Virus record (IMG/VR): IMGVR_UViG_3300022225_001767
DNA length: 64,000 nucleotides
Origin: a virus
Direction: 5' to 3' (one strand)
Part shown: piece by piece, positions 1-42,775 of the stretch
Position numbering within the stretch: the stretch's first letter is position 1
How the letters are laid out: each line of letters starts with the position of its first letter
Notes under the pieces: generated by a model
The model's database searches: none
Seen by the model: the letters and a program-made list of their open reading frames with translations, nothing else
Told to the model about the DNA's origin: nothing
Translations under genes and position numbers: made by a program

Positions 1-439
1 CTGCCTCATACTCAAAAGCATGCAGTTCTTTTTCAAACTTGTAATGAAAGATGTCTGGATACATGTAAAGCATATCAAGTACGCCAACTTCTACACCTTG
101 TTCACGTACTACATTGACGCTTGCGTCATCATACTCACGATGGTGACGAAACAGAGAAACATTGAAGTATTGGACTTGGTAATGCGCAAACATTTCATTA
201 GTGTTGTGAAACCCCAACATGTCAGCGGCGAGCTTATCGGCTGCGCTTTGCTTTATGCTATCACGCGCTTTTTGGCCTACCGCACGCGCAACACTGTCAC
301 CCAGCGATTCCTTTTTAATGGTATGCTTAAATAGACCGACAACTTGCTCTAACGTCAGTGACGCTCGTAAACTTTCTCTTAACGCAGCTAGGTCTTTTTC
401 GTTTTGGATTACTTTTCTTAATGGTATTTCGTTTGACAT
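1..439 (-). CDS. Helical-motif family protein (unit A), runs off window start; paralog of 41804-42775
   Basis: Hand-translated, missing from ORF track: MSNEIPLRKVIQNEKDLAALRESLRAS...AADKLAADMLGFHNTNEMFAHY; GAGGA RBS; frame open to base 1. Confidence 0.85.
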   Translation of the reverse strand, partial: MSNEIPLRKVIQNEKDLAALRESLRASLTLEQVVGLFKHTIKKESLGDSVARAVGQKARDSIKQSAADKLAADMLGFHNTNEMFAHYQVQYFNVSLFRHHREYDDASVNVVREQGVEVGVLDMLYMYPDIFHYKFEKELHAFEYEA

Positions 440-449
440 GATATCATCC

Positions 450-594
450 TCTTGATAGCAGTGTGTTGTGCCCCGTTTCCATCACACTGCTTGACGATGT
501 AACGACAAACGGTGTCATAAAAAAAGTTGATGTAACTATTCATAGTGCGTTGCGCCAAGGGGCGGCGTGGTGCAAAACCACATCTCAAAGAGAC
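450..594 (-). ncRNA. Pseudoknotted leader RNA, unit A
   Basis: Two 5' hairpins; GCCCC (559-563) complementary to GGGGC (470-474) in loop GGAAACGGGGC of terminal stem 458-465/483-490. Confidence 0.7.
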
Positions 595-600
595 CGTTTT

Positions 601-629
601 ATATTAACCACATAACCAACATAAGTCAA
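601..629 (-). promoter_or_regulatory. sigma70-type promoter of unit A
   Basis: TTGACT-N17-TAATAT on minus strand. Confidence 0.65.
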
Positions 630-637
630 ATATTCTG

Positions 638-682
638 TTGACAATAAACACAGTTCTTGAGAGAATAACCTTGTCAACACAC
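638..682 (+). promoter_or_regulatory. Box-type promoter cassette (example)
   Basis: TTGACAataaacacagttcttgaGAGAATaaccttGTCAACAC then GGAG RBS. Confidence 0.8.
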
Positions 683-697
683 TCTTTGGAGATCCTT

Positions 698-1051
698 ATG
701 CCTAAAAACATCCCGATTACGGTAGATAAATTACGTGATGTTATTGAAAGTCAGCGCTGCCTTTATGGTGATGCGCCTGTTGTAGTCCGTCCGGAACCTG
801 CAAACCCTTTTTTTATCAAAGTGGCCAACCACTATATCCTTGATTGTCAGCGCGACGTCGATATGGCGGAAGACGGCATTACGCTGAAAACGCTATCAGA
901 GGCGCTTAAGGGCTTGCCGGGGCATGCTCGCGTTATGTCTGAAGATCGCATTCGCAACAATACTGAAATTGGTTTTTATTCCCCCGAAGAAGGTTTCGTG
1001 GCCACATTGATGGCGAATGAAATAGGGCGTAAGCGCATACAAGCCGCGTAG
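698..1051 (+). CDS. hypothetical protein
   Basis: ATG after cassette and GGAG RBS. Confidence 0.7.
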   Translation: MPKNIPITVDKLRDVIESQRCLYGDAPVVVRPEPANPFFIKVANHYILDCQRDVDMAEDGITLKTLSEALKGLPGHARVMSEDRIRNNTEIGFYSPEEGFVATLMANEIGRKRIQAA

Positions 1052-1150
1052 CCTAAATTTCACCTTCTCTCGCAGCAAGTTACCCTTGACGGTGAGTGCT
1101 TTTGCTGCGAGAATGGGTACGTCAACACAGCAACAGGAACCATTCTGTCA

Positions 1151-1795
1151 ATGAAATCACCTACGCCATTTTCGTGTAAAGATATTACACTTACACTATC
1201 GCCTATCACTTCTGATAACGATTCAGTTGTAGGTGATATGCCTAATCCAGAGCGCGTAAGCACATCGCGATTATGCATGACGTTTAGCGCTATGAATCAG
1301 TACGTCATGGACAATTATCTTTCTAGCGAAGAACGTGAAAATGAATTTGTAGTTCAGTTCAGCGCGCCCGCGACGGGTTACCATACCGACGGCTCGAATG
1401 AGACGTTTATTCGCAGCGTGATCACTTACATCACGGCATGTCAAACCGCCTTTGATCATGAGCAAGCATCACTCACCGTTGATAATCCTTCTCACGCACG
1501 TCAGTTTCTTGGTAACCACACACCTAACCATTACCAAGACGTCAGCAATGTTATGCTGGCTAAATTCATCGAACTTGTCAGCCCAGAACGCTCAACTTTT
1601 TCCACTAGTGAGCTCGACTTGATTGATGACTATCGACTTATTTGCTATCACACTATGAAGTGGTTGTATTGCGCGATTTCTGGCGATGACTTTACTACCA
1701 TGGTGGGTAACGATGGCAGCGTTTACGATGCCAGCAACGTGCCGCTTTTTGATTGTGTAGATGATGTTCTCGCTGTGCTACACAACCAACTTTAA
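1151..1795 (+). CDS. hypothetical protein
   Basis: 214-aa ORF, co-oriented with neighbours. Confidence 0.7.
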   Translation: MKSPTPFSCKDITLTLSPITSDNDSVVGDMPNPERVSTSRLCMTFSAMNQYVMDNYLSSEERENEFVVQFSAPATGYHTDGSNETFIRSVITYITACQTAFDHEQASLTVDNPSHARQFLGNHTPNHYQDVSNVMLAKFIELVSPERSTFSTSELDLIDDYRLICYHTMKWLYCAISGDDFTTMVGNDGSVYDASNVPLFDCVDDVLAVLHNQL

Positions 1796-1872
1796 CTCCC
1801 TAACCCACATTCTTTGTGTTGACTTGAACACTTACTTTTGAGATAATTAACATGTCAACACAACGAGGAAAT

Positions 1873-2355
1873 ATGATGTCTTTACTTAAAAGCAGTTCGG
1901 TAACACTTCATTTCTTACCAGCAAAGGCGATTAAACCCGGTCTAACCATTGCTATTGAAAACGACGATGGTTCCGTGGTTACAGGTGAGGTATCCAATGT
2001 GCACGTAGGCGGCGAGTCACCGGATTCGCCAACTGACTTTGCCATTCTCATCAATAACGATGAACACTTCAAGGTGATGGATGCGGATGACCCCGTTAAG
2101 CTTATTGTGCCGTATTTAGCAGGTGCTGACCTTACGATTTTGCAGCGGGCTGCGTTATCGTTACTCAACGACATCAATGTGGCGGGTGGACTTTATGAAC
2201 GTAACGGCAACTTTGATACGGTCGAAGGTTGGGACGAAGATGGATGGCCTGACCTTGCTGAGTCAGTAGTTCAAACCTACCATGCACTAAAGAACGAAGG
2301 CGTGATGGACGCTTGTCTTTTGATTACTGATGTTAGTGATGATGAAGACAACTAG
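1873..2355 (+). CDS. hypothetical acidic protein
   Basis: ATG after cassette and GAGG RBS. Confidence 0.75.
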   Translation: MMSLLKSSSVTLHFLPAKAIKPGLTIAIENDDGSVVTGEVSNVHVGGESPDSPTDFAILINNDEHFKVMDADDPVKLIVPYLAGADLTILQRAALSLLNDINVAGGLYERNGNFDTVEGWDEDGWPDLAESVVQTYHALKNEGVMDACLLITDVSDDEDN

Positions 2356-2442
2356 TTTATGAGGGCGGCGTAAAGTCGCCTATTGACAACCTACTCAAGT
2401 TTTGAGATACTTATTCCTGTCAACACAACACAGGAAAATGTT

Positions 2443-2646
2443 ATGTATCCAAATATTGTTACATTTGTGCCAGGCGTAGACAAAAAACCTGAAGGCCTAG
2501 GCAAATGCATCGGTTCTTTAGTGTATCGGATGTCATCAGGCACGGTAAAAGCTGCGGTGCACGTTGCGCCTAACGGCAACGAGGCGCTGGCACGAAAAGA
2601 GCTGGATGCCATTAATCTTAACAGTCAGCGCGCACAGATGCGCTGA
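2443..2646 (+). CDS. small hypothetical protein
   Basis: ATG after cassette and AGGA RBS. Confidence 0.65.
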   Translation: MYPNIVTFVPGVDKKPEGLGKCIGSLVYRMSSGTVKAAVHVAPNGNEALARKELDAINLNSQRAQMR

Positions 2647-2838
2647 TTGTTGTTGACAAGAGGCCATCTCATTGAGATAATGCCATCGTCAACACACGTA
2701 CATGTCGCACACTTTAGGCAACCGTAGATCATTATTCTACAACTTGCCACGCAAACAATCACTACGCTCATGCTGCGATAACTCGATTATACGTCGGGAT
2801 AAAGCTTGAGCTGAACAACGTATTTATTGGAGTCTATT

Positions 2839-3129
2839 ATGACACAGAAAGTTTCTAAAGCGATCCTAAACGTATCGCGTATCGACACGGCCATTAAAAA
2901 AGCCAAAGAGGTACTTGTTAAGCGCGCAAAGAAAAGCGGAATCACTGAGAACTTTGGACGGGCAGAAGTGGACGCTATTCGTGAGAAGTTTATCAACCCC
3001 TCTGATTTTAGTAATGATGAACTTAAGAAGCGTTCTCAGCTAACGGCGTTCTCTGATTGGGCAGCTTCGCTTAGTTTAGAAGACCTTGAAGATAAACCGG
3101 CAAGCAAACGGATTTCTATGTTTGACTAG
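2839..3129 (+). CDS. hypothetical protein
   Basis: GGAG RBS; about 150-nt leader after cassette at 2653. Confidence 0.75.
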   Translation: MTQKVSKAILNVSRIDTAIKKAKEVLVKRAKKSGITENFGRAEVDAIREKFINPSDFSNDELKKRSQLTAFSDWAASLSLEDLEDKPASKRISMFD

Positions 3130-3185
3130 AAGGCCTGGTATTATGGCGTTTCTTAATCTGGCGATTTCACTGTATTGGAGGGAGC

Positions 3186-3467
3186 GTGGCTGATAGCAAC
3201 CTCGATGGCGTTGTCGCCTTGTATAAGTCTGATATCAATGCGATAATTGATGCACTTGAGAAGGAGGTCTCACCCTCTCTTTTCATTAAGCTCTCGGGCT
3301 TCCTTATGCCTACGCTAAACGTTAACGTCATGGACGAAGAGGGTAACGCTCTCCCCTATCTTTGTGCCGTTTACGTACACAGATTGAATGGGTTTTACGC
3401 CACTCTCGCGTCCTCGGTTCCTTTGCGTACAAGACGAGCGCTACCCAGGATCCGACCCACTCAATAA
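3186..3467 (+). CDS. hypothetical protein
   Basis: GGAGG RBS, GTG start. Confidence 0.55.
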   Translation: MADSNLDGVVALYKSDINAIIDALEKEVSPSLFIKLSGFLMPTLNVNVMDEEGNALPYLCAVYVHRLNGFYATLASSVPLRTRRALPRIRPTQ

Positions 3468-3743
3468 CATAGAGGATTGCTCTTTTATTAGGCTGTGACG
3501 GAAGGCCGCACGCGCATCCCACGTCCCGTCATCTTCGAGCTCAGCCAGGCGCTCAGCAGCGTCTGGGTAAGTGCTCATGTTTTCTTTTGTTATTTCAAAC
3601 ACACTTATTGCCATGTGCTGCAATCTTGGCATCTCAGCCAATGGTGCATCGCAAATGATACGCGAGACAGCTTGCTTATCACCGCTATTTGAGGCTTTTG
3701 CCATCGCCACCATCCAATCCCATTCGGATTTAGATTGACTCAT
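3441..3743 (-). CDS. hypothetical protein
   Basis: AAGGG RBS, 100 aa. Confidence 0.65.
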   Translation of the reverse strand: MSQSKSEWDWMVAMAKASNSGDKQAVSRIICDAPLAEMPRLQHMAISVFEITKENMSTYPDAAERLAELEDDGTWDARAAFRHSLIKEQSSMLLSGSDPG

Positions 3744-3850
3744 AAATATCCCTTCGCGTTGTTTAATGTCACCTCTATACTATCACAAAACGATTGCTTT
3801 TTGAGTCCATTTTTGGCATACTTAATTATGTCAACACACAAGGAAAAACC

Positions 3851-4486
3851 ATGCGAACCCTAACCAAAAGTTACACAGGTCAAACAGAGTCAACCGACAA
3901 CTTACAACGCGCACTTCATGCCATTATGCATGCCAATAGTATTATCAGTGCACGTGAAGAGTCATTTGATCCTTCATTTGTTACGCTCGCAGCTTCTGAG
4001 GTGCTAGAAGAGACGGCAACTCTGGCCAACGCTTTCCCGTGTCCTGAAATCGAGGCCATTCAGGCCGTTCTGCCTCGGATTGTCGCAGGTACCATCGCAT
4101 CGACAGAGTTTCGCTTAACGCTTCAAGAACCGGAGTTTCAAAAAGCGTCGTTTGGCACACTCCCGGACAAGCGAACTGTGTGTTTTTCATTCCCAAGCGT
4201 GAATGGTGATAAAGAAATGCGTGTTGCGTTTTCTGTTAAGCGCGTAGCTGCGTTTAGCGAGCATCATTACGAAATAGACCGTGATGGTGAAGTGTCTCAC
4301 CCTTACTCAACGTTAGGTACGCCATCGGCCGCGACCCTTGATTTTTTTACTACACTCCTTAACCGCATTGTCTTCAGCGACCTCTCATTCCCTCTGACTG
4401 TCACTGATGATGAACTTGTGGAGGCGCAAAACACGCTACGTAAATACCGCGCTTTACTTGATGCGGCAGATGAACTGCAAGGATAA
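3851..4486 (+). CDS. hypothetical protein
   Basis: ATG after cassette and AGGA RBS. Confidence 0.75.
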   Translation: MRTLTKSYTGQTESTDNLQRALHAIMHANSIISAREESFDPSFVTLAASEVLEETATLANAFPCPEIEAIQAVLPRIVAGTIASTEFRLTLQEPEFQKASFGTLPDKRTVCFSFPSVNGDKEMRVAFSVKRVAAFSEHHYEIDRDGEVSHPYSTLGTPSAATLDFFTTLLNRIVFSDLSFPLTVTDDELVEAQNTLRKYRALLDAADELQG

Positions 4487-4490
4487 AAGC

Positions 4491-5783
4491 ATGAACCCAC
4501 TTGGCAAACGCCTTAACAAGTTAAACATTACCCCTTCCTCATCAGTGTCGCTAGATACAGCACACCTTGTTGAGGTGTACTGCCCCGACACGTCGGTTGC
4601 CTCATGGTTACTTTCGATGCTAAAAGAAACGGGGGTTGTACTATTTCACAAGGAGCAAATAGCGATCCTTTACCCGGGGTCTGGCTATGGGTTGGCTGCG
4701 CATTGGTATTTTGCTGATGCCAACGCTGTCACCGTCATGCGTTCTCTCATACAGAAGGCTAAGCGCGAGGTGTTCAGCGAGGTGTTTACAGATAAAGAGA
4801 CCTTTAAAGACACCTCAACATTCCTCTCAACAGCGACACAGGCCGCTACGCTAAGTGATATTGACTTCACCCATCTTGATGGCGCGCTTCACCGTTCGGT
4901 TACCACGCCCGACGAAGCAGCCGTGTTCATCAAGCATAGAGTTGACAACATTGACAACAAGCGCATCAGTATCGCTCACCGTCTTATTGCGCAACGCCAG
5001 TGCGACCATATCAATGCACAGATAGCGCAACAGCACAGCTTTTCTGCTCGCTGCAACAATGTGGCAACACTTATGTGTGAAGGGTTTATCTCCTTTCCTC
5101 TTGATGCTGTACTTGACATCATGTCATCGATGTTACCCTGGTGCACACAGGAAATGACATCCCTACTTGGTGATGGCGGCAACAATAGTGATATGTGGAC
5201 ACTGCTGAATGCTTATCGCCAACATGTATTTAATGACCATAATTCATTGGATTTAGATGTTAGCTTTGCCCCTACAGAGATAATTACGCAGCTTTTTTTA
5301 CCCACCTTACCCAAGGAGATTGACGACGCTATCGAGGTGCTGATCAAAGATATAACTGTTGGGTTTGAGCCTTTAATGACAGGTGCGTTTAAAACACCGT
5401 TTATTGGTATGCTTTCGGCGGGGTATGAAAATTTCTCCGAACATTTGCTTAGCGCAATGCGCACTATTCATGCGCACACGGAATCTCAACGGCATGCGCA
5501 GTACGAGCCTCAAATGCTTTCTTCCACACTCAACTTTGAGGCTCGTGCAGGTGGAAGCAATGCAGCGCCAAAACAACGTGAAACAGTGAAAGAAGTCATT
5601 AAGCGCCTAATGGTCAACACTCTTGTTGATATCATAAGAATGGCGCGACAATGTGATGCACACGCCGCGGTGTGCTACAGCTTGTTTGAACAAGGTGCTG
5701 ACGGCAATCAAGAGCCTAAAGCGCAGTTTCATGCGCTTATTGAAGAGCTTAGCGCTATCAGCAATAGGCGATACGGCTGTTAG
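4491..5783 (+). CDS. hypothetical protein
   Basis: 430-aa ORF starting a few bases after the upstream stop. Confidence 0.75.
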   Translation: MNPLGKRLNKLNITPSSSVSLDTAHLVEVYCPDTSVASWLLSMLKETGVVLFHKEQIAILYPGSGYGLAAHWYFADANAVTVMRSLIQKAKREVFSEVFTDKETFKDTSTFLSTATQAATLSDIDFTHLDGALHRSVTTPDEAAVFIKHRVDNIDNKRISIAHRLIAQRQCDHINAQIAQQHSFSARCNNVATLMCEGFISFPLDAVLDIMSSMLPWCTQEMTSLLGDGGNNSDMWTLLNAYRQHVFNDHNSLDLDVSFAPTEIITQLFLPTLPKEIDDAIEVLIKDITVGFEPLMTGAFKTPFIGMLSAGYENFSEHLLSAMRTIHAHTESQRHAQYEPQMLSSTLNFEARAGGSNAAPKQRETVKEVIKRLMVNTLVDIIRMARQCDAHAAVCYSLFEQGADGNQEPKAQFHALIEELSAISNRRYGC

Positions 5784-7914: not shown

Positions 7915-7949
7915 GTTGACTTTTTACGCCTATATGTTATCCTTTTTTT

Positions 7950-8149
7950 TGTGAGATGCACTTGCTTTGCATGTGTCAGTCATCTCATGGGGCAGCTCCC
8001 CTCTACGACCCACCCGCTCGCCGGGTTACGCATAAGCGTCACTGGAAAACCGCCAGCAACACCCTTGATTGACACCGGACATTATCATGGTGGCAAGGAG
8101 GAACGGGTCGGACTCTACCATGCCACAACATTGATAGGACGGTACCCTT
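7950..8149 (+). ncRNA. Pseudoknotted leader RNA, unit B
   Basis: TGAGATG/CATCTCA and GGGG/CCCC hairpins; CGACCC 8006-8011 pairs GGGTCG 8105-8110 in loop GGAACGGGTCG of stem 8090-8095/8121-8126; TTGACT promoter at 7916. Confidence 0.7.
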
Positions 8150-8821
8150 ATGCAAATTACATTTTCGCTTCGCAACAACAATCTTATTATCGACAGCTCA
8201 CAGAGCTTAGATGACTTTTCCGCCGCATTCGCTGACCTTACAAAGCTGAAAAAGACGCACGTCAAAAGTACGATAAGCAAAACCTTAGGTTTCAGCCATA
8301 TCAAGGCGCTTGAGAGCGCACTTACACCATACATTAGCGCCCCAGATGTTCGCCTTGCCGATAAAACGATAAAGGGGCTTCAAGATCTTTACTGGTGGCT
8401 TGATGATAACATCGACATGAACACTGAGATGTATTTTGATAGCAATGGTGAGGTTGACTCAAAAGCGTTGCAGGACATGTTATCGCCTTTGTTTGATATG
8501 ATGCGACAACAACAGGCATCAGGTAAACCTATCACGAACCGTGCAGAGGAAATCACCGCTAAGCGCGATGGTATACTTTCCGACATGACGAAACATGCCC
8601 TTCAGCATGCGGATGTCGACAACGAAGCGCAGCTAGAGCAAAAACATTATTACGCGGTTCAAGATGACGTTGAAGCACTCAACCGAAAATTATTTAACCA
8701 TGATGATTATGGGAAAGCCTTGGCGCTACTTGAACGTGAGGGCATGCAAGATTTTGCGAACCTTCTTGCCGAGATGACAGAAACGAAAACGGCAGAGGAT
8801 CACATCGCGCATACACTGTAG
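8150..8821 (+). CDS. Helical-motif family protein (unit B); paralog of 61637-62251
   Basis: KSTISKTLGFSHIKAL motif; IIDSSQSLDDFS matches IIDSKHSLDQFS. Confidence 0.8.
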   Translation: MQITFSLRNNNLIIDSSQSLDDFSAAFADLTKLKKTHVKSTISKTLGFSHIKALESALTPYISAPDVRLADKTIKGLQDLYWWLDDNIDMNTEMYFDSNGEVDSKALQDMLSPLFDMMRQQQASGKPITNRAEEITAKRDGILSDMTKHALQHADVDNEAQLEQKHYYAVQDDVEALNRKLFNHDDYGKALALLEREGMQDFANLLAEMTETKTAEDHIAHTL

Positions 8822-8946: not shown

Positions 8947-9174
8947 ATACCTGCTCGACCCTACACTGCGGTGCGTGGTAACAGCAGAGGGAGGCTCCAG
9001 ACCTTCGTCGCATCTCAGGTGCAACAGTACACAATACCGTCGCACTCATGGCTAATACTGGCAACGTCTTCACTTAATAAAGACAACACACCCCTTTTTC
9101 GACATAACGTTACTTGACGAGTCGCAATTGGAACGAGATGCACAATGATGATTACGACTCACTTGGAGAATGAT
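8947..9174 (+). ncRNA. Pseudoknotted leader RNA, unit C
   Basis: GCATCTC 9010-9016 pairs GAGATGC 9135-9141 in loop GGAACGAGATGC of stem GAGTCG 9119-9124/CGACTC 9155-9160; promoter TTGACA-N17-GATAAT at 8914. Confidence 0.7.
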
Positions 9175-9825
9175 ATGTCTACACCTGTTACTATCTTGGG
9201 CGCTGATCGCGCCACGTTAATGAACAACACCCGACGCGCACTGGAAGGATTCCAAAAAGGACGTCCTGTTACGCGTGATGCATTGGTGAGAAAAGCGCTG
9301 GCCACCATCTTAGGGCAAGATAATGAGCACCTCCCTACCGCGGACTTCTCAATTAATAATGCCTCACTGGAGACACGCTTGCGTAACGCTATGGCGCCAC
9401 TTACGTTTTTGCAAGACTGGGGCACTGGGGATGACGAGTACCTTGATTTAAACTTTGAAGCGCGCGCGTGGGATGCCAATGCAGAGAAGGACGACATTAC
9501 CGTCGACTACCGCATCAGCTTCCATATTCCGGGTAAATACGCCTATTTCATTATCGGTAAAAATTATGGCAGTGGGATGGTCGGTGCCATTGAAATCCCG
9601 CTCTCACACCTACCTTACGCGCCGATGTTATTGCTTGAAGGCAGCCGTGATGCGCAGTGGCTTGACGAGTCAGAGATTTTTGTTGGCATCGAAAAGATGT
9701 TGGATGTTTACCATGCTATTTGCGCCGATCCATTGCTAAAAGAAGTTTTTATCGATAACCGCCCTGCACTTTCTCTTAAATCCGCGAAAGATGCAGTCAC
9801 AACATCGCACAGCGAGGTGCGTTGA
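9175..9825 (+). CDS. Helical-motif family protein (unit C)
   Basis: RKALATILGQDNEHL motif; GGAG RBS. Confidence 0.8.
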   Translation: MSTPVTILGADRATLMNNTRRALEGFQKGRPVTRDALVRKALATILGQDNEHLPTADFSINNASLETRLRNAMAPLTFLQDWGTGDDEYLDLNFEARAWDANAEKDDITVDYRISFHIPGKYAYFIIGKNYGSGMVGAIEIPLSHLPYAPMLLLEGSRDAQWLDESEIFVGIEKMLDVYHAICADPLLKEVFIDNRPALSLKSAKDAVTTSHSEVR

Positions 9826-13144: not shown

Positions 13145-13246
13145 CACGGCCAACTTTCACACTAATAAAACAAAGTTTTCTTGACAACATACACTGTTTT
13201 TGAGATACTAATTCTGCCAACACAACAGATAACAAAGGAAACATTT

Positions 13247-13831
13247 ATGGCCACTAAGGGCGTAAACAAAGTCATCCTTGTAGGTAATCTTGGGAACGAT
13301 CCTGAGGTTCGCTACATGCCTAACGGCAATGCCGTTGCCAACTTAAGTCTAGCAACAAGCGAAAGCTGGAAAGATCAGCAGGGTCAAGTTCAGGAACGCA
13401 CTGAATGGCACCGACTTACCATGTATCGCCGACTGGCTGAGATTGCTGGTGAATACCTGAAAAAAGGTTCACAAATTTACGTTGAAGGTAAACTTCAAAC
13501 GCGCAAATGGCAAGACCAGCAGGGTCAAGACAAGTACACTACTGAAATCATTGTCGATCAGATGCAAATGCTAGGCGGTCGCAATAACAATGGTGGCGGC
13601 AACCAAGGTGGTTACAACCAAGGCAATAACCAAAATCAAGGCGGTTACAACCAAGGCAACAACCAAAACCAAGGCGGCGGTAATCAAGGTGGTTACAACC
13701 AGAACCAAGGCGGCAATAATGGCGGTGGCAACCAAGGTGGCGGTAATCAAAATCAAGGCGGTCAGAACGCTGGTAAGAACCCACCTATGGCAGAACCAGA
13801 TTTTGACTTTGATGACGATATTCCTTTTTAG
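13247..13831 (+). CDS. ssb: single-stranded DNA-binding protein
   Basis: [21 protein letters not shown] fold, G/N/Q linker, C-terminal DDDIPF; start at MATKG. Confidence 0.97.
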
Positions 13832-18688: not shown

Positions 18689-18780
18689 GCTTCTTAAACC
18701 TCACAATATTTCGTTAACAAAAAGCGCCATTTTAGGCGTTTTTTTGTTGACTTTCATGTTCAATACTGCCAAAATGAAAA

Positions 18781-18965
18781 TGCTTCACAGTGATGTGCGG
18801 CAAACACAGGTGAGAACCTAGCAGCCTTCCGGCGCCATGCGCTTGCAAATATCATTAACGATGAACATTACGCTATCATTTAGCAATCCACGTTTACATT
18901 ATGAACTGTAGCGTGTCATCACCCCGGGAAGGCAAGAAAAAGACACGCAATACGGAGAATGATGT
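18781..18965 (+). ncRNA. Pseudoknotted leader RNA, unit D
   Basis: GCCTTCC 18824-18830 pairs GGAAGGC 18927-18933 in loop of stem GCGTGTC 18911-18917/GACACGC 18942-18948; TTGACT at 18747. Confidence 0.7.
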
Positions 18966-19778
18966 ATGAACACACCTAAGTTATTTTTTACCACGCTTGT
19001 TAATGCTCTGCGCACTAAAGATGATGCAAAGGCATTGCGTCAGCACATGAATGACGTGAACGCCAAGCACTTCGGAAACACCCAAAAACCCGCCAAATTG
19101 TTCGCTTATTTCGCTGACATGATGGGCACATCAAACGCAAACAAGCTATCAGCGTTACTTGATGAAAAAGTCAGCGACAATTTTGACGATCCTGCAACCT
19201 TCATCAGCACACTACTTAGCCCCATGATGTCGCGTGTTGCGCGTGTTGGCGAAGTGGGTAGAGTGATTTCAGGTAGCGACCCAGCCCCTAGCTGGTTTAT
19301 GAACCTTCCATTATTAACCATAAAAACGACGGGATACACCGACGATCCTGAAAAAACCACCTGCTATCTTGGCGTTATTATCAACGTTGAATACTCTAGG
19401 GCCTTCGGTAAACTTCTCGTTGATGCGACATTAAAACTGTTTGATGATGCTGATCTCTCTGCCTGTGATATTGGGTACGAAGTAGAACTTGAAACGCAAA
19501 ATGACATCACCGAATACTTTAGCAGCGAGATGGAAATGGGATTTGGTCAAGCGACAAGCATCTCACTTCATGAGGGCGGCAAATTATTCTCCTCGTTAAC
19601 TGGATTAACAACCTCTACGTTTGATGAAGGTGACGACCCCATTATTCCCTTTCTCGTCAGCGGGATTGGCCATGAGCTCATTCGAACATTGTCGCCGGTG
19701 TGCGATTTAACGTTAAATTGCGGTGACATCGCATGCCAACAGATGTTTTTAGCATCCGGTAAAATAGAAAAACGTTAA
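18966..19778 (+). CDS. Helical-motif family protein (unit D)
   Basis: LFAYFADMMGTSNANKLSALL motif; GGAG RBS. Confidence 0.78.
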   Translation: MNTPKLFFTTLVNALRTKDDAKALRQHMNDVNAKHFGNTQKPAKLFAYFADMMGTSNANKLSALLDEKVSDNFDDPATFISTLLSPMMSRVARVGEVGRVISGSDPAPSWFMNLPLLTIKTTGYTDDPEKTTCYLGVIINVEYSRAFGKLLVDATLKLFDDADLSACDIGYEVELETQNDITEYFSSEMEMGFGQATSISLHEGGKLFSSLTGLTTSTFDEGDDPIIPFLVSGIGHELIRTLSPVCDLTLNCGDIACQQMFLASGKIEKR

Positions 19779-19830
19779 TTTGTTCATAAAAAAACGCCAC
19801 CGGCAACCTGGTGGCGCTTGTGTTCTTTAT

Positions 19831-19888
19831 CGAAAATCGTCGAGAAAACCCCGTGAACAGAGCGAAGCGATGTCGCTGGGTAGTTCAC
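19831..19888 (+). mobile_element. 58-bp non-autonomous derivative of the IS200/IS605 element at 42772-44166
   Basis: TTTAT target, then left-end CGAGAAAACCCCGTGA fused to right-end CAGAGCGAAGCGATGTCGCTGGGTAGTTCAC. Confidence 0.8.
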
Positions 19889-20718: not shown

Positions 20719-20887
20719 TGTCGCCGCTAATAGCGACTGCCTCCTCCGCCCTAACGGGTAAGGCCCATATTAGCAAGTTACACCGACCTGATTTTTATTG
20801 AAACTACTGTCACCAGCGGTTCTCCAATAACAGGCGCAAGGGAGGAACGAGCTGTTAAACTGAACCGAAAACGGAAACAGTACAATC
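20719..20887 (+). ncRNA. Pseudoknotted leader RNA, unit E
   Basis: TCCTCC 20742-20747 pairs GGAGGA 20841-20846 in loop of nested stems CGGTTC/GAACCG and TAACAG/CTGTTA; TTGCAT-N17-TAATAT at 20685. Confidence 0.65.
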
Positions 20888-21817
20888 ATGAAATTCACTA
20901 CTTCATTTATCAATGCGGCCCTTACACGTCTACGTAACAGCATGACGCTTCATACCTCACGCGATCGTGTTTCCGCTGCCATTAAGCAGATGGCCTACAA
21001 AGCCAATGATGAGGACAAAACACAACTCGATACGCTACGCCATCAACTCGATACGCTTACGCTTGAAGATGCACCGATGGACAGAAAGCGCGCGCAAGAA
21101 ACATTGGCAACGATCCTTACCGGTCAGAATTATGCCCTTTTGAAGCGCGATGCAGATGCGCCACTCTCGCCCACGCACAATGATTTTAATGCGGCGAAGG
21201 GTATGTTGAACAACGCATTGAGCATGATCAATGATATGCAACATTATGAGCGAGAATCTGAACGCGCTTACAATAAGCTACTTAAATTGTTAACCGACAA
21301 TGCAGGTGATGCAGCTGCTGTAAAAGGAGATGCGCTTTCACCATGGACGAGCAATGCAGCCCTGTGCGCTTACTACCGCGACAAACTCATTGAACACAAA
21401 TCGTCGTTTAAATTCCGCATTAAAGACCTAGACGGCCCCATGTTTAGCCGTTCAGGCAGTGATGCCTATGAGGTTAAGGTTTCTTTCCTTTTTGGTGGCC
21501 ACAGCATCAATGTTCTTTGGGAAGTTAAAAACAATGAGTATGCTGAGTTTGACGATGAGTTTGTTTCTGTTGAACTTGATGGCGACGACATTGAATCTGT
21601 CACATCCAGTGAACCGTGCAACAATGGGCATTATGTTTTTGACTTATTCAACGACATAATGTCAGATTACTTACGCGACAACGTTCGGTTAGGTGACGAT
21701 GACGTGTGCTCTCCTGATGAAGCATCACGTGACGCCGAGAGGGAACTCGCTTTGCAAGCGTTGACAATGGGTCACCGTTGGTTCGAGAAGCAAAAAAAGA
21801 GAGAAAAACACTCGTGA
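20888..21817 (+). CDS. Helical-motif family protein (unit E)
   Basis: RAQETLATILTGQNYALLK motif. Confidence 0.78.
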   Translation: MKFTTSFINAALTRLRNSMTLHTSRDRVSAAIKQMAYKANDEDKTQLDTLRHQLDTLTLEDAPMDRKRAQETLATILTGQNYALLKRDADAPLSPTHNDFNAAKGMLNNALSMINDMQHYERESERAYNKLLKLLTDNAGDAAAVKGDALSPWTSNAALCAYYRDKLIEHKSSFKFRIKDLDGPMFSRSGSDAYEVKVSFLFGGHSINVLWEVKNNEYAEFDDEFVSVELDGDDIESVTSSEPCNNGHYVFDLFNDIMSDYLRDNVRLGDDDVCSPDEASRDAERELALQALTMGHRWFEKQKKREKHS

Positions 21818-25945: not shown

Positions 25946-26039
25946 TTAATAATCAATCAACAACACAGAAGCGAGTTTCCCCCGCCATAACCTCGCTTCT
26001 TTTTTATTGACATTTTAATCAATACTGGTATTATTAACA

Positions 26040-26238
26040 CAAGTTTCGAGAGCGTTACGACGCTATGACCGAAATGTGTGTTGCAGCACACGCCGCCTAC
26101 CGCCCTTTGGGTGTTTGTTTTATACAGACCGGCCACTCTTGCACCATTGAATGCACACTTACGTTTATAATCGTTTACCGCGTGAGGCTTCAAGGTTAAT
26201 TGGTAGGGCTTGAACATTCACATTCGGAGAACGCTATT
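26040..26238 (+). ncRNA. Pseudoknotted leader RNA, unit F
   Basis: CCTACC 26096-26101 pairs GGTAGG 26202-26207 in loop of TTCAAG/CTTGAA stem; two 5' hairpins; TTGACA at 26007. Confidence 0.68.
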
Positions 26239-26865
26239 ATGAGCAACCCATTACGCCACCTTGCCACCGCCATTGTTACTGCTTGTCAAACTAAAGACAA
26301 CGCAAAACACGTCAAACAGAGCACCGTCCTTGATGTTCTTACTAAGCATGAAGGCTACAGAAGTATACAGGCGCGAGACAACGCAACTGCTACGCGTAAC
26401 GATGACAAACCACTGCCATCGGACGTTGTCGCATTGCGAGGGCTTCTTTACGCCAACTATCCACATTCTGACTTACTTCCCATAGAACTTGGTGAAGCCA
26501 TCACATTTAAAGGCTCCCTCGTTTCGCACCCTGATTGGGGATGCGATGCACCCTTCGCCGTCATGTGGGATTTACTCAGTAATGAACTACATGCAGCGGT
26601 CGATGAGCTTGAGCGCTGGAACCGCTTGTGCGACCGCCTTGAAGACGTTATTGAGTCTGGCACTGACGCTATAAACGAAGTGTTGATTGCTTTCCCACCA
26701 CGTATTGCGCAGTTTCTTCACGCAGAGTTTGATGAAGTGACCGACGACACCATGTTGCCTGTTAAACAGGCTGCGGAGAAATATCGCGCCCTAGAGCGCT
26801 TTCAATCTGATGTTGAGAGTGTCACGGATGCGCTTCGCAATGCCCGTTCGGCACAAGACAGATAA
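26239..26865 (+). CDS. Helical-motif family protein (unit F)
   Basis: VKQSTVLDVLTKHEGYRSIQA motif; GGAG RBS. Confidence 0.78.
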   Translation: MSNPLRHLATAIVTACQTKDNAKHVKQSTVLDVLTKHEGYRSIQARDNATATRNDDKPLPSDVVALRGLLYANYPHSDLLPIELGEAITFKGSLVSHPDWGCDAPFAVMWDLLSNELHAAVDELERWNRLCDRLEDVIESGTDAINEVLIAFPPRIAQFLHAEFDEVTDDTMLPVKQAAEKYRALERFQSDVESVTDALRNARSAQDR

Positions 26866-35990: not shown

Positions 35991-36611
35991 ATGGTTAAAC
36001 TACGCACTGACAACATTAACCCAAAACATCTTGCGCACATTGTGTGTGTTGACGCTATGCATTTTGTAAACCGCAGCGAAGATGGTTTTTGCGACTTCAC
36101 GCTAGAACCAGGCGATATCATCATTGCACGCCGCCACGAGCTTGAAAGAGATTATCGCTTCCGTCAAGTTATGCCTATGCTGGTGTTTACGCACAAGGGC
36201 AAAATCTGGGCATATCGCCGCACTGAAAAAGGCGGTGAAAAGGGGCTTCATAACAAGGTTGCTGTGGTGGTGGGCGGTCATTTTGACCTTGGCGACCTAG
36301 TGTATGATAAAAGTGTCATTGATCTTGAAAAGTCACTTGAGAACGCTACTGCGCGTGAAATTGACGAAGAGGTCTTATTGAATGGGGCCAACGTGGTGAG
36401 TCAAACCAAGTTGGACAAAGTGATCACTGCTGATGAGACCGGTGTTGATGCGAAACACGTTGCCTTGGTTACGATGATAGAGCTTGATGCCATGACGGTA
36501 GAAAGCAAAGAAGACGAGCTTGAGTCTCTCGGCTTCTTTTCGCCTGATGAACTGCTCAATGGCGACTATGCCCTCGAAACGTGGGCGACCATGATTTGCA
36601 AAATGATGTAA
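35991..36611 (+). CDS. NUDIX-superfamily hydrolase-like protein
   Basis: YRRTEKGGE...GGH and AREIDEEV NUDIX-box-like segment. Confidence 0.8.
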   Translation: MVKLRTDNINPKHLAHIVCVDAMHFVNRSEDGFCDFTLEPGDIIIARRHELERDYRFRQVMPMLVFTHKGKIWAYRRTEKGGEKGLHNKVAVVVGGHFDLGDLVYDKSVIDLEKSLENATAREIDEEVLLNGANVVSQTKLDKVITADETGVDAKHVALVTMIELDAMTVESKEDELESLGFFSPDELLNGDYALETWATMICKMM

Positions 36612-37067: not shown

Positions 37068-37138
37068 TAACGTTTTGGCAACATTAACGCTGATGCACGC
37101 ATCCAATGTGATGCACAACACTGACAACGAGGACTTAC

Positions 37139-37714: not shown

Positions 37715-37763
37715 GTCATTGCTAAAGGTGTCGTTTATTAGTCACTTTGAGTTTCAGCATAAG

Positions 37764-37793
37764 AAAAGGCAGTTCGAAAGAACCGCCTTTTTT
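37764..37793. terminator. bidirectional intrinsic terminator
   Basis: AAAAGGCaGTTC-gaaa-GAACcGCCTTTTTT between convergent genes. Confidence 0.7.
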
Positions 37794-37819
37794 GTATGTT
37801 AAGTGAGTTCTGTGGCGTG

Positions 37820-38167
37820 CTATTCGCTTCCTTCCAGCCTTGCGATTTTACGCTCTACTTGAGCTGGAGAGTTTTTGCCAGACGTACGAATACCTTTTTC
37901 TTCAAACACAATGTTTCTCACCTTGTTCATGTTTGACGTTTCACCACGTCCAATGTTCATCTCAACATGGACTCGCTCAACCTCTTGGTATACGCGCAGG
38001 TCTTGATAGGCTTCAAGCAGGCTCGTTTTCAGCTTACGCCTATTCCATATCGCATTGGTTGTGATTAATAGCCCCACCAGCGCGACAAGTGAACCAAAAA
38101 TGGTTGCCGTTGCTTGTATGAGCGATGACAGGATGCGTGGCTCTTGGAGTAGTTGTTCAATGTTCAT
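37820..38167 (-). CDS. hypothetical protein with N-terminal TM segment
   Basis: GAGG RBS after minus-strand cassette 38180-38226. Confidence 0.72.
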   Translation of the reverse strand: MNIEQLLQEPRILSSLIQATATIFGSLVALVGLLITTNAIWNRRKLKTSLLEAYQDLRVYQEVERVHVEMNIGRGETSNMNKVRNIVFEEKGIRTSGKNSPAQVERKIARLEGSE

Positions 38168-38305
38168 GGCTGTTACCTCGTTGTGTTGACGTAGTCAATT
38201 TTACTAAAATTAACATCATAAGTCAACTTTTTTGAGGTTTTTGGTGTGAGCTATGAGGGTAAAACTCGCCCCAGAAAAAACGGGGCGAGGTATGAAATTG
38301 AGATG

Positions 38306-39067
38306 TTAGCGCGCGGCGCTCTTACGTCTTTTTAGACCGGCTAAAGACAACAACCCCAATCCCGCCATGACAGCGCCTGGCGCGCTTACATTGGCTAACC
38401 GGGCATTAGCATTATTCTCCACCAGGGACATATCTTCTTGCGTGGTCAATGTGGCGCCACCGTCAGCAACCAGGTAAACGCCCCGACTTGCTGCTGTTGC
38501 GTCTAACGTATATGACTCATGCGTGTAATCAATATAGGAATACGAATAATACCGCGTTCGCTGCGTTGTCATCGGATCTTTGAACCAACGTACACCCGCC
38601 ATATTCACATTGCCTTCATTAACATACATGCCGTAGGAGTAATAGTCATGTTCTACATTCCATGACGAACCCGATATGCGCTTGTACGTCCACCCGAACT
38701 GAGCACTAAAATCGTCAACAATTTCTTGTACTGCTGGTGAGCTTTCGCGGTTGTTGTAATAATAGCGAGATTGACTGGTGTCATATCCCGTTAAATCAGT
38801 CACAATATCCTGTACTTCAAGTGCCGTTGCAAAACGCCACCCGTCAAACAAACCGCCCTCGCCGAGCTCTGCACTCACCTGGTTAATTGACATCCCTTTT
38901 GTCTGGTCAAGCTTTAACCACTCTATCCCGGTGTCATAGTCAAGAAAAGCAAGCCCGTCACCTTCTGCCTTCCAGTCTAGCGGAATATAGTTTGCAGCGT
39001 TTGCACCACTTACCATTGCAATGGTTATTGCAAAAGCAGCAACACCTTTTTTGAAAAAATTTTTCAT
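38306..39067 (-). CDS. PEP-CTERM-like sorting-domain surface protein
   Basis: Signal peptide ending ANA; C-terminal NVSAP, TM segment, KRRK. Confidence 0.78.
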   Translation of the reverse strand: MKNFFKKGVAAFAITIAMVSGANAANYIPLDWKAEGDGLAFLDYDTGIEWLKLDQTKGMSINQVSAELGEGGLFDGWRFATALEVQDIVTDLTGYDTSQSRYYYNNRESSPAVQEIVDDFSAQFGWTYKRISGSSWNVEHDYYSYGMYVNEGNVNMAGVRWFKDPMTTQRTRYYSYSYIDYTHESYTLDATAASRGVYLVADGGATLTTQEDMSLVENNANARLANVSAPGAVMAGLGLLSLAGLKRRKSAAR

Positions 39068-39326
39068 ACTTCTTCCCCACTTTACATTTGTATGTTTATC
39101 CTTAAATCGCCCCACTCCATGCAATGCTTATGCCGCCTTTTTCACGCATTTAAAAGCGCACCCGCAGTCGTTCAGCGCCTTGTATATTCACACATTTACA
39201 CTCCTTATGGATATACACCCACCAGTGTAAAACAACCTGACACTTGCAGCACCATAAAACAAACCATTGACACCCCACACAGACTGTGAGATACTAACAT
39301 TGTCAACACAACAAGAGAACTTCGCT

Positions 39327-39635
39327 ATGAGCAAAACCAGACTTCAGAACATCTACACCACACGCCTTATCAGCAGCAACACAGATGGAAAGCGCGATGA
39401 TGGCACCGTGGTTAAAATCAATTACCAGGTCGACCTGGTGACGGCTTTTGACAACTCACCAGGAGCGGATGACTATGATCCTGAAATTCCTATGCGAAGT
39501 GGGACCAAAATTAGAATCACATACCGCACACCTGAGTCTTTCCGAAACAAAGTGTTCTTTGCACTGAGAGAGCAAGCTGAACACGTCATCTCAGAGCTTC
39601 AAAACCCTAACAGTGATCTTTACGCCGCTGAGTAA
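39327..39635 (+). CDS. hypothetical protein
   Basis: ATG after cassette. Confidence 0.7.
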   Translation: MSKTRLQNIYTTRLISSNTDGKRDDGTVVKINYQVDLVTAFDNSPGADDYDPEIPMRSGTKIRITYRTPESFRNKVFFALREQAEHVISELQNPNSDLYAAE

Positions 39636-39719
39636 AAGCGCCATTAAGTGCGTTATCATTGACAACGCACTCACATTGTGAGATGATACACGGGTCAACA
39701 CAACAAAGAAGGTAATTCC

Positions 39720-40124
39720 ATGAATAGACGTAATGTCATTGCACGTATCGACTGCCTAACATCAGACAGCTGCCCGCTAACCAAAGGCTTGCCTACCTAT
39801 ATCGAGGTAGAGGTCGCATTTAATGATGGCAGCGTTCCGCGTGCCCGTGGCGGTAAGCCACCCAAGCGTTATGAAGCCAATGCGCAGCTTAAGTCACGCG
39901 ACGGCAGCTTTGTTAAAGCCTATGGCGGTAAAGGTGTCACTATGGGATTAAAGGAAGCGGCACGCTTTAGTGTTAAAACGCTTGAGTCCTTATCTCTGCC
40001 TAGCGCTGATGTTGAGAAGCTCGTTGCGCGCGTGTGTGAAATGAGTGGGCTCACACTCAGTGAAAAAGGCGAGGCTCAGATGGCTTATCTTAAAGACACT
40101 GAGGCTGCCAAAGAGACAGCCTAA
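39720..40124 (+). CDS. hypothetical protein
   Basis: ATG after cassette. Confidence 0.7.
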   Translation: MNRRNVIARIDCLTSDSCPLTKGLPTYIEVEVAFNDGSVPRARGGKPPKRYEANAQLKSRDGSFVKAYGGKGVTMGLKEAARFSVKTLESLSLPSADVEKLVARVCEMSGLTLSEKGEAQMAYLKDTEAAKETA

Positions 40125-40143
40125 CGCTACATTGTTGGCGTAA

Positions 40144-40302
40144 CTATACGTTACGCCGCCCTGCATACCCAACAGCCAAACCTAGCGCTGAAAGTGCGAC
40201 AGGGGCTACTGTTTGTAGTTCGGGTAAAAATAAAGCGATAAGTGATATTCCCAGCGCCACGGCACCACCGAACACGACGCCATATATTCCGTTAGTCATC
40301 AT
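40144..40302 (-). CDS. 52-aa two-TM membrane protein (below ORF-track cutoff)
   Basis: AAGGAGG RBS; MMTNGIYGVVFGGAVALGISLIALFLPELQTVAPVALSALGLAVGYAGRRNV. Confidence 0.65.
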   Translation of the reverse strand: MMTNGIYGVVFGGAVALGISLIALFLPELQTVAPVALSALGLAVGYAGRRNV

Positions 40303-40428
40303 CCAACCTCCTTGTGAACATGATGTTAATAATAGCAGATTATTTTATTTGTGATAGCCTTTTTATTTGACAACGCTCTCAGTTTTTGAGATACTAACCT
40401 TGTCAACACAGCAGCAGGATAAAACACC

Positions 40429-40818
40429 ATGAGCACTACCGTTCAAGCGTCAACCATTACCCCAGAGCAGGTTGCTTTCTTCATTGAACGCGCCAGTCAG
40501 GTTCGCACCTCTTTAACGCTATCAGCACGAGACGATGGCAAAAAGAACACTATCCGACTAAAACCCTTCCAGGATTTCACGGATGAAGGGGATGACAACG
40601 GAGAAGGTATCGATATTCTTGTCAATGGCAAAGAGGGTTTTGGACGCTTGCATTTAGTTGAAGATCCTGAGAACCCTAATGACGACATGCTGTCTGGCTC
40701 ATGCCTTGGCTTTGATCTTGTCGTGTCATGGAGAAAAGCCGATGAAGTGTGTGGCGCACTTGCCAATACGCTTGTCTCGACGCTTGACGGTGAATGGGCA
40801 TTTAAAGGCTGCAACTGA
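40429..40818 (+). CDS. hypothetical acidic protein
   Basis: ATG after cassette. Confidence 0.72.
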   Translation: MSTTVQASTITPEQVAFFIERASQVRTSLTLSARDDGKKNTIRLKPFQDFTDEGDDNGEGIDILVNGKEGFGRLHLVEDPENPNDDMLSGSCLGFDLVVSWRKADEVCGALANTLVSTLDGEWAFKGCN

Positions 40819-40867
40819 GCCTTTTTATCTCCTAGCACCACGACTATTAACTAGAGGACATATCGGC

Positions 40868-41233
40868 ATGAATGAGCTTCGCATCCCACAGTGGTACCTT
40901 GCATTAGCAAGCACGCTACACCTTAACATCGTTTTCCCTATCGCGATGGTTCTTGGTAGCGTGGTAGCCGGTCTCACGCTCACAGAGGCAATGAGTGGCT
41001 TCTTAGCAGGCACATTGGCTTTTACCTTCTTGATGCTTGCCTACACGCTCAACAAAGGGTATGGGCGTGGCAACATCATCACACGCGCTTTATTTACGTT
41101 GTGTGTGTTCTTGGAGGTGCCAGAGCACAACGACAATAACGCGGGTCTTGCCTACTTCTTTATTTTTATTGCAACAGGGCTTGTTTTATTGCTCATCCAG
41201 CTCTCGTTGCTTGGTGCGCGCCTCATAGCATAG
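40868..41233 (+). CDS. membrane protein
   Basis: GAGGA RBS; 3-4 hydrophobic segments. Confidence 0.68.
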   Translation: MNELRIPQWYLALASTLHLNIVFPIAMVLGSVVAGLTLTEAMSGFLAGTLAFTFLMLAYTLNKGYGRGNIITRALFTLCVFLEVPEHNDNNAGLAYFFIFIATGLVLLLIQLSLLGARLIA

Positions 41234-41311
41234 CGCCACGCAACTCATTACACTCTATTTCCAACTAGCCTGCGGGCGTATCCGCAGGCGAATACACCAA
41301 GCGAGGTTTTT

Positions 41312-41560
41312 ATGGCAGCAACGGTTCTCTTTGTTTCACCCGAAGATGCTGAGGTGCTACGCAAGTACATGACGCCGGGAGACAGCAATCAAGGCATCGC
41401 GCTTATTTTTAGCAAAGAGGCGCAGACCGCGCTTGAGGATGCAGGCATAGAAGATGGCGAAACGGTCGATTATGACTTTGGCGGGGACGCAGACGCTTAC
41501 GTTGAAACCGTCAACACCGTCACGCATCACTTTGTGCTTTCGCAAAAAGACAACGCGTAA
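41312..41560 (+). CDS. small acidic protein
   Basis: GAGG RBS. Confidence 0.7.
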   Translation: MAATVLFVSPEDAEVLRKYMTPGDSNQGIALIFSKEAQTALEDAGIEDGETVDYDFGGDADAYVETVNTVTHHFVLSQKDNA

Positions 41561-41580
41561 GCGGCACTCAGCGCTCTAAC

Positions 41581-41606
41581 AAAAAGACCCTAAAGGGTCT
41601 TTTTTT
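41581..41606 (+). terminator. intrinsic terminator upstream of unit G
   Basis: AAAAAGACCC-taaa-GGGTCTTTTTTT. Confidence 0.78.
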
Positions 41607-41641
41607 GTTGACTCTAGTTTGTTCGTTTGATATATTTAAGT

Positions 41642-41803
41642 TGCTCCGATGGAGTGTAGGCCATACGACCTACGCCGCCCCTTTGGCCAAAATCGTAAGC
41701 AACATCTTTACCTATTCACCTGTGGTACGTTACATACAACGACATAACACCTTGGGTGCGATTGGGAACGGGGCACAAGCGCACCATTAATGAGGAATAC
41801 CTT
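41642..41803 (+). ncRNA. Pseudoknotted leader RNA, unit G
   Basis: GCCCC 41677-41681 pairs GGGGC 41770-41774 in loop GGAACGGGGCA of stem GGTGCG/CGCACC; TTGACT at 41608. Confidence 0.72.
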
Positions 41804-42775
41804 ATGTCATTACGTCAACAGATCGTGTCTAAATCACACATGCAGGGGCTACGAGACTCACTGCGAGAATCATTCTCCCCGAATAAGCTTGCTGTCCTGC
41901 TATCACACACCATTAATGATCCTGCTGTCCAGGCTGCAATGAGCAAAGCCATCGGTTCAAAAGGCGAGAGCAAGCTCGACGTGCGCGTCGCCGACGACAT
42001 CACAGCCACCCTGCTTGGCTTTAATAACACCCATGAAATGTTCGCGCATTACAATAGTGTGACGCATGTTCGTCGCTGGGAGTTTTTACACAAAAACAAA
42101 CACGAAGACTATGCACCCGACTATTTGGTTGAAGTTGGCGTCCACTTTTCTGTACTTGATGCCATCGCCCTAGAGGACAACGATTTCGAACATGATCGCA
42201 TTGATGAACGTTTTGAGCTCCTTGCTATGGATGAGGCCTACCCTGCCAGTGATGAAGATCTCGCAACCTGCATCACGTCAAAAAGCGATGCGCCTGCGGT
42301 TGTGTTATCGATGTCAAGAGATGGCCTGTTTGATGACATTAAAATGTCAGACAGCGCAATGGCGTCACAGGCATTCACCTTGCTCGAATCAATGATTTTA
42401 ACCACAAGCGCCGGCATCCCCTTTGCACTGGATAGCGACGAGGTAATGAAACGCTACACGCTCTCTGATATGGCGATATTCTCGGTTTCCCAGGATGTCG
42501 TTGATAGCGAGCTAGACCTCCTGACCGTCTTTCTTGAAGAGGGGGTGCTGGAGGGGACAATCACCGTTCCACTACCAGCCGCATTGCTACCACTCGCGCC
42601 ACTTTCAATCAGAGACGGCATGCATATCTATACGTTACTGGATGGGTACACACTGCATTTTTCTCCGGCATCGATGATGTTCATCTTGGCGCACAACGAC
42701 GCACCCTGCTTTGGCGGCGGCATACACCTCCATGAGGACGACCTTCGACGTCAGGCATTTACTGGCTTGGCGTGA
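41804..42775 (+). CDS. Helical-motif family protein (unit G)
   Basis: VADDITATLLGFNNTHEMFAHY; paralog of 1-439; GAGGA RBS. Confidence 0.8.
   Translation: MSLRQQIVSKSHMQGLRDSLRESFSPNKLAVLLSHTINDPAVQAAMSKAIGSKGESKLDVRVADDITATLLGFNNTHEMFAHYNSVTHVRRWEFLHKNKHEDYAPDYLVEVGVHFSVLDAIALEDNDFEHDRIDERFELLAMDEAYPASDEDLATCITSKSDAPAVVLSMSRDGLFDDIKMSDSAMASQAFTLLESMILTTSAGIPFALDSDEVMKRYTLSDMAIFSVSQDVVDSELDLLTVFLEEGVLEGTITVPLPAALLPLAPLSIRDGMHIYTLLDGYTLHFSPASMMFILAHNDAPCFGGGIHLHEDDLRRQAFTGLA

Follow-up and report, generated by a model that had tools for sequence, protein, structure and literature searches.

Two copies of a promoter-leader-gene unit

We analyzed a 64,000-nucleotide (nt) stretch of DNA from IMG/VR virus record IMGVR_UViG_3300022225_001767 (hereafter, the window), a marine megaplasmid-like element. 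We focused our attention on two of its units, A and G, each of which combines a promoter-like sequence, a structured leader RNA, and a gene of an unannotated protein family. The gene of unit A (2-439, minus strand) is truncated at the window edge to 146 residues, all of which are identical to P0007, the complete protein of 340 amino acids (aa). The gene of unit G (41804-42775, plus strand) encodes P0001, a protein of 323 aa. An earlier reading of the same sequence (hereafter, the first-pass annotation) had called the two proteins clear paralogs from a handful of shared peptide motifs. All of its quoted strings occur where it placed them, with the peptide motifs encoded by 2-439(-) and 41804-42775(+), and the paralogy was borne out by an alignment with 33% identity over 121 residues (expect value [E] 1e-20).

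To characterize the protein family, we combined profile, word-based, and structural searches. Among 1.84 billion representatives, a HMMER profile search found only 43 clusters with E no worse than 0.001; a word-based search returned four close relatives. Run against all open reading frames (ORFs) of the window, the family profile identified A and G as the only members. The conserved part of the family is a helical N-terminal domain of ~90 residues, and the remainder is variable. Among 45 family members, the N-terminal 88 residues are basic (median isoelectric point [pI] 9.3), while the remaining residues are acidic, with a median pI of 4.5 and a median net charge of -17. Family proteins had no match in Pfam, PHROG, or NCBIfam, and a PDB sequence-profile search returned nothing. 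The AlphaFold model of a family protein is confident (predicted local distance difference test score, pLDDT, 92.5); Foldseek found no match for it at E 0.001 or better, with either the whole protein or the N-terminal domain. The best VIA-align Z score, 4.4 to helix-turn-helix domains, lies within noise for both the whole model and the N-terminal domain, and none of the structural comparisons pointed to a nuclease or toxin fold. A Glyoxalase_8-type helical domain received no support from Pfam, which matched nothing in residues 1-100 of P0001 and P0007 even when E values up to 5 were allowed. These are fast-evolving mobile-element proteins with no metabolic or transport signature.

The two units share the same upstream layout. 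The promoter-like sequence of unit A (601-629, minus strand) consists of TTGACT, a 17-nt spacer, and TAATAT; that of unit G (41608-41636, plus strand) consists of TTGACT, a 17-nt spacer, and TATATT, with an extended -10 TG (10/12 matches). Both are of the sigma-70 type, with an identical -35 hexamer and the same spacer length. They lie equally far from the fold described below, and the distance from promoter to ATG is ~160 nt in each. A terminator-like hairpin with a T-run (41586-41606, plus strand), which gave partial matches to terminator-like Rfam entries, insulates unit G from the upstream gene. The window also contains a ~60-nt promoter-like repeat (TTGACA, a spacer, a GATACT-type -10, GTCAACACAAC, and a ribosome-binding site) at ~45 sites between 629 and 63643, where it sits before most of the small plus-strand genes. 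Neither unit A nor unit G has the box of this repeat, and their promoter differs from it.

The leader RNA begins at the predicted transcript start and ends immediately before the ATG; it occupies 440-594 (minus strand) in unit A and 41643-41803 (plus strand) in unit G. We built two covariance models, R1 from 4 leaders and R2 from 13. In unit A, positions 437-597(-) scored 133.4 bits with R1 (E 2.6e-27) and 132.3 bits with R2; in unit G, the corresponding scores were 178.6 bits (E 5.7e-37) and 162 bits. Within the window, the leader occurs at A and G only, according to R1 and to R2 with filters off (all else at E >= 1). The two sequence blocks that the first-pass annotation had picked out as shared are likewise confined to these leaders: the 11-mer CGCCGCCCCTT has exactly 2 copies in the 64 kb, at 557-567(-) and 41673-41683(+), as has the 15-mer GG(A/G)AACGGGGCACAA, at 466-480(-) and 41764-41778(+).

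Fold and covariation of the leader RNA

The model alignments describe a fold with three 5' hairpins (P0, P2, and P3), a 3' hairpin (P4), two pseudoknots (PK1 and PK2), and a helix, P5, that sequesters the ribosome-binding site. P0, a 4-base-pair (bp) hairpin with a 3-nt loop, lies at the extreme 5' end of the predicted transcript (583-593 in unit A; 41644-41654 in unit G). P2 is a 5-bp hairpin (567-581 in A; 41656-41673 in G), and P3, with three invariant base pairs (GCC/GGC in unit A) and a loop of 7-9 nt, abuts it directly (554-566 in A; 41674-41687 in G). A variable linker of ~40-60 nt separates P3 from P4, which has 5-13 bp among members (8 bp at 458-490 in A; 6 bp at 41755-41785 in G) and carries the conserved 15-mer in its apical loop. 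The ribosome-binding site comes after P4. Relative to the elements listed in the first-pass annotation, the fold gains one further hairpin (P0), the two pseudoknots, and the ribosome-binding-site helix.

Long-range pairings connect these parts. PK1 joins the P2 loop to the 14 nt after P3, and its paired words vary by subtype; in unit A, the loop pairs just 3' of P3, and in unit G, loop bases 41664-41668 pair with 41693-41697. PK2 joins the P3 loop to the P4 loop as GCCCC:GGGGC in most members (559-563 with 470-474 in A; 41677-41681 with 41770-41774 in G). P5 forms between the 16 nt that precede P4 and the segment that extends from P4 to the ATG; it takes in the Shine-Dalgarno sequence in most members and the start codon in several. 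In unit A, the ribosome-binding region (437-457), with GAGGA at 447-451 and the ATG at 437-439, pairs with 491-503 just 5' of P4. In unit G, the 5' strand of P5 is 41743-41754; its pairing with GAGG (41792-41795) was computed as CCUU:GAGG, and that with start-codon bases was assigned by eye.

The first-pass annotation had proposed that the stems of A and G had changed in a compensatory manner under selection on RNA structure. The stems that it quoted are real. Between the two leaders, both bases are changed at 3 of 4 pairs in P0, 2 of 5 in P2, and 2 of 6 in P4, and no pair is broken. In the R2 alignment, which comprises 14 distinct leaders, 94.2% of stem cells pair, and two-sided changes, 43 cells in all, occur at 11 of the 18 stem pairs. 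Covariation scored 0.477 versus 0.207 +/- 0.022 for shuffles, with none of 500 shuffles reaching the observed value, and controls with slid partners stay at or below 0.145. Stem changes are clearly more compensatory than expected by chance; hence, the proposed selection on RNA structure stands. P0 is paired in 100% of cases, with covariation at 3/4 pairs, and the arms of P0 and P2 come in three and five versions, respectively, all perfectly paired. The low score of P3 arises because the model misplaces a one-base difference in loop length; its arms are invariant in the raw sequences. An independent run of RNAalifold recovered P0, P2, and the GCCCC:GGGGC pairing between the P3 and P4 loops. Six cells of P4 are G-U pairs, so the structure is specific to the sense strand, i.e., it is RNA. 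By the measure applied to riboswitch-class RNAs, this is a conserved structured 5' untranslated region (UTR) element with covariation support.

We also used an alignment-free approach, in which the duplex energy of each leader's own two strands was compared with that of non-cognate combinations over 20,000 permutations. Mean energies for cognate versus non-cognate strands were -5.5 versus -2.4 kcal/mol for P2, -8.8 versus -3.7 kcal/mol for P4, and -7.5 versus -4.5 kcal/mol for P5, with no permutation as good as the observed pairing in any of the three. For P0 (-2.3 versus -1.2 kcal/mol) and PK1 (-3.7 versus -1.7 kcal/mol), 5 and 6 of the 20,000 permutations, respectively, were as good. For PK2, the two most distant members, L152 and L163, have a different 6-mer in the P3 loop and its exact complement in the P4 loop, which is a two-sided change of the tertiary contact itself.

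Other candidate features were tried and rejected. Pairing of a linker CCGUU with a P4-loop AACGG, as an alternative structure, is broken by changes in L159, L156, and L152. CsrA sites, formed by a P4-loop GGA together with the Shine-Dalgarno sequence, fail in L157 and L162, where the P4 loop has no GGA.

Linkage of leader and gene among relatives and sister units

We looked for leaders outside the window in DNA fetched for members of the gene family, which formed 15 locus groups (L001, L003, L008, L148, L149, L151, L152, L155, L156, L157, L159, L160, L161, L162, and L163). In every one of the 15, R1 matched a leader immediately 5' of the family gene, and with R2 the weakest matches improved to E 2e-9, 1e-6, and 5e-6. 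L152, with one family gene and one leader, is pAMCP48-600 of Alteromonas mediterranea, which has been described as a chromid (PMC5217437). At L156 (40-1221), the gene call behind the database protein P0010 continues in frame across the leader RNA, which adds ~45 spurious residues to the N terminus.

The idea that RNA and gene are passed on as one module thus holds at 15/15 outside locus groups, and RNA and protein divergence, compared as pairwise distances, are correlated (Mantel r 0.68; 0/10,000 permutations). The stricter form, one leader for each gene, gives way in a single place: at L161 (1451-2347), a second family gene lies 10 nt behind the first in tandem and has no leader of its own, the sole exception seen. 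Co-inheritance is a property of any 5' UTR and, on its own, does not demonstrate a partnership between RNA and protein. Selection on the RNA is also visible in the rates of change. Between unit A and L149, the leader is 99.4% identical, compared with 87.2% for the coding sequence and 80% for third codon positions; between unit G and L003, the corresponding values are 97.5%, 84.6%, and 68%. Covariation and a leader more conserved than the coding sequence both show selection on RNA structure.

Searches beyond the family-gene loci yielded little. With cmscan, no Rfam 15 family reached its gathering threshold anywhere in the window, and a search of 41560-41830 at E up to 10 gave only terminator-like and noise matches. 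A pattern of the two conserved blocks hit 18 loci in viral contigs, none of which matched the covariance model. The same pattern hit at least 120 loci in genome contigs, mostly from GC-rich genomes, and 0 of the 100 tested matched the model; the pattern is too loose. Protein-based scans found nothing in viral contigs and phage records and only 3 loci in metagenome contigs. Megablast of 41000-46000 against phages also found nothing, blastn of plasmids with the leader returned only a spurious 35-nt match in Vibrio casei, and literature searches turned up no description of this leader RNA. The leader, which is ~160 nt long, contains two pseudoknots, and shows strong covariation, represents a new and well-supported family of structured RNAs that has no Rfam counterpart.

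Six further promoter-leader-gene units, which we term sister units, are present in the window, at 7916-8821(+), 8950-9825(+), 18745-19778(+), 20720-21817(+), 26030-26865(+), and 61637-62499(-). In each, a 5' loop is complementary to the loop of a 3' hairpin, and the sequences differ from unit to unit. The proteins of unit B (8150-8821) and unit H (61637-62251) are paralogs of each other (E 4e-12), and the other sister-unit proteins are unrelated by BLAST. A basic N terminus followed by an acidic body was found in 5/5 of the sister-unit proteins computed, a set that leaves out the 26030-26865 unit. The covariance model built around A and G finds none of the six, and for this reason A and G make up a genuine RNA subtype that matches a protein subtype, as the first-pass annotation had suspected when it described the two as co-varying. 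A descriptor search for further units performed no better than on shuffled sequence.

Several neighboring features complete the picture of the window. Directly after the stop codon of unit G lies an IS605-type TnpB gene (42834-44060, minus strand) with OrfB_IS605, Cas12f1-like TNB, and HTH domains. The related contigs L003 and L008 lack this insertion, whose ends lie close to 42772 and 44171; ~60 nt at 19826-19888 match both of these ends in inverted orientation. Imperfect tandem repeats of 15-33 nt enriched in AAC/CAA/GGT codons (13586-13783) encode an N/Q/G-rich segment inside an ORF at 13181-13831. Further genes encode a 723-aa protein with a PcfJ-like C-terminal domain (49470-51641, minus strand; E 1.7e-10) and a 206-aa NUDIX hydrolase (35991-36611, plus strand; E 2.6e-5). 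These two proteins fit a plasmid-like element.

Probable control of translation by the leader

We consider it probable that A and G are diverged copies of one transcription unit whose structured leader controls translation in cis. The layout points this way, because a promoter is followed by a fold that starts at the first transcribed bases and ends in a locked ribosome-binding site. Regulation of translation by the fold, in response to some trigger, is most likely the function. Each unit comprises a sigma-70-type promoter-like sequence, a ~160-nt structured leader within the predicted mRNA, and a gene of ~320-340 codons. In the RNA, a 5' domain of P0, P2, and P3 is followed by the variable linker and then by P4, stacked on P5, in which the Shine-Dalgarno sequence is paired. 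PK1 and PK2 tie these parts together, with PK2 linking the 5' domain to P4. The folded state would keep the ribosome-binding site closed, and a trigger would shift the balance. The leading candidate for this trigger is the gene's own product, which might act through its conserved basic helical N-terminal domain in an autogenous manner; an element-encoded factor or a small ligand may serve instead. Rather than a metabolite, we favor the gene's own product or some other element-encoded factor, since the protein is a fast-evolving mobile-element protein whose sole conserved part is a basic helical domain, and since the sister units have differing loop pairs and other protein families within a shared basic/acidic design.

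Several observations weigh against control of translation by this fold. L162 and L163 have a weak PK1 or none, and the P5 strands of unit G rank poorly among the possible combinations, 6th of 12. Nested minimum-free-energy folding of either leader, A or G, is no more stable than that of shuffled sequences (z -1.0 and -0.7). Pairs were counted on alignments that had been fitted to the model structure, and the shuffle tests overstate independence because the sequences are related. The transcript start is a prediction in both units. A conserved alternative (ON) structure was not found, so no switch is demonstrated. Lastly, the protein has no recognizable RNA-binding fold, its best Z score of 4.4 being in the noise range.

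Some of the same observations bear on other explanations. The leader might be a small-molecule riboswitch, in which a ligand would bind in a pocket made by the 5' domain with the P4 loop and closed by PK2, and its binding would set whether P5 hides the ribosome-binding site. Its complex, pseudoknotted, aptamer-like shape, with near-invariant unpaired blocks in junctions and loops and with covarying stems, is what such an RNA would show, as is the sequestering helix that adjoins this fold; two subdomains bridged by a pseudoknot over a variable linker recall the ZTP riboswitch. We nonetheless regard a riboswitch as unlikely. The downstream gene belongs to a fast-evolving mobile-element family with no metabolic or transport signature, Rfam contains no matching riboswitch, and units of the same build in the window differ in their loops and protein families, which is not expected for one ligand. 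Alternatively, RNA and protein could work together as a functional ribonucleoprotein pair, with the RNA neutralizing, sensing, or guiding, as in a type III toxin-antitoxin-like or defence/counter-defence system, and with unit-specific loops providing cognate specificity. The strict linkage of RNA and gene, an RNA more conserved than the protein, and the presence of several units that each join a different RNA variant to a different protein family with a common basic N terminus and acidic body are all consistent with such a pair. Tandem RNA repeats, a terminator between RNA and gene, and a nuclease or toxin fold are all missing, however, and an RNA that runs into and pairs with the gene's ribosome-binding site carries the signature of cis control, which makes a pair of this type quite improbable.

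The position of P0 at the first bases of the predicted transcript, together with our failure to find an alternative conformation, would suit a constitutive mRNA feature that does not switch and that protects from 5'-end-dependent decay or fixes a low rate of translation. A stabilizer needs just a 5' hairpin, however, not two pseudoknots with invariant loops, and pseudoknots and loops are kept over protein divergence down to ~25-30% identity; we therefore find little to recommend this explanation. Action as DNA, i.e., as a recombination site, single-strand origin, or protein-binding site, is very improbable indeed. The region does lie on a repeat-rich mobile element, but the G-U wobble cells are mismatches on the other strand, the element keeps a fixed place between promoter-like sequence and ribosome-binding site, always in sense orientation, and it pairs with the Shine-Dalgarno sequence.

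A more novel reading, to which we give little credence, is that leader and protein are cognate partners in an undescribed family of RNA-protein modules with at least 7 variants in the element. Unit-specific loop-loop sequences and the basic N terminus might then match each protein to its own RNA, and the acidic body might be an effector (e.g., in defence or counter-defence) that is released or activated when the fold is disturbed. The leaders and sister units offer a natural series of RNA and protein variants for tests of cognate recognition. The RNA is tied to a protein family that lacks both annotation and a known fold and is carried by abundant marine megaplasmid-like elements, relatives of an Alteromonas chromid; it makes RNA-based control on large plasmids open to test in a concrete case.

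Known systems share parts of this design. ToxI is a tandem repeat array that is followed by a terminator before toxN and is processed by ToxN. As in ToxI/ToxN, a pseudoknotted RNA lies immediately upstream of a protein gene on mobile elements. Unlike ToxI, the leader is a single, non-repeated unit that overlaps the ribosome-binding site: there are no tandem direct repeats in 440-600 or 41640-41803, no terminator between 41640 and 41804, and no ToxN/AbiQ-type match by profile or fold. The ZTP (pfl) riboswitch has two subdomains, a variable linker, and a conserved pseudoknot. With it and with other pseudoknot or kissing-loop riboswitches, the leader has in common linker-split subdomains, conserved loops, covarying stems, and a putative adjoining platform at the ribosome-binding site; it differs from them in having no Rfam match, a mobile-element gene context, and sister units with different loops. 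The E. coli rpsO/S15 leader, the long-range pseudoknot of rplT/L20, and the phage T4 gene 32 leader are autogenous translational operators with pseudoknots. Compared with these, the leader has no sequence or model similarity, its fold is larger and has two pseudoknots, and its protein is neither ribosomal nor known to bind nucleic acid. Like them, it is a structured 5' leader within the mRNA that it would regulate, has a pseudoknot linked to the ribosome-binding site, and is inherited with its gene, and the basic domain of the encoded protein could bind nucleic acid.

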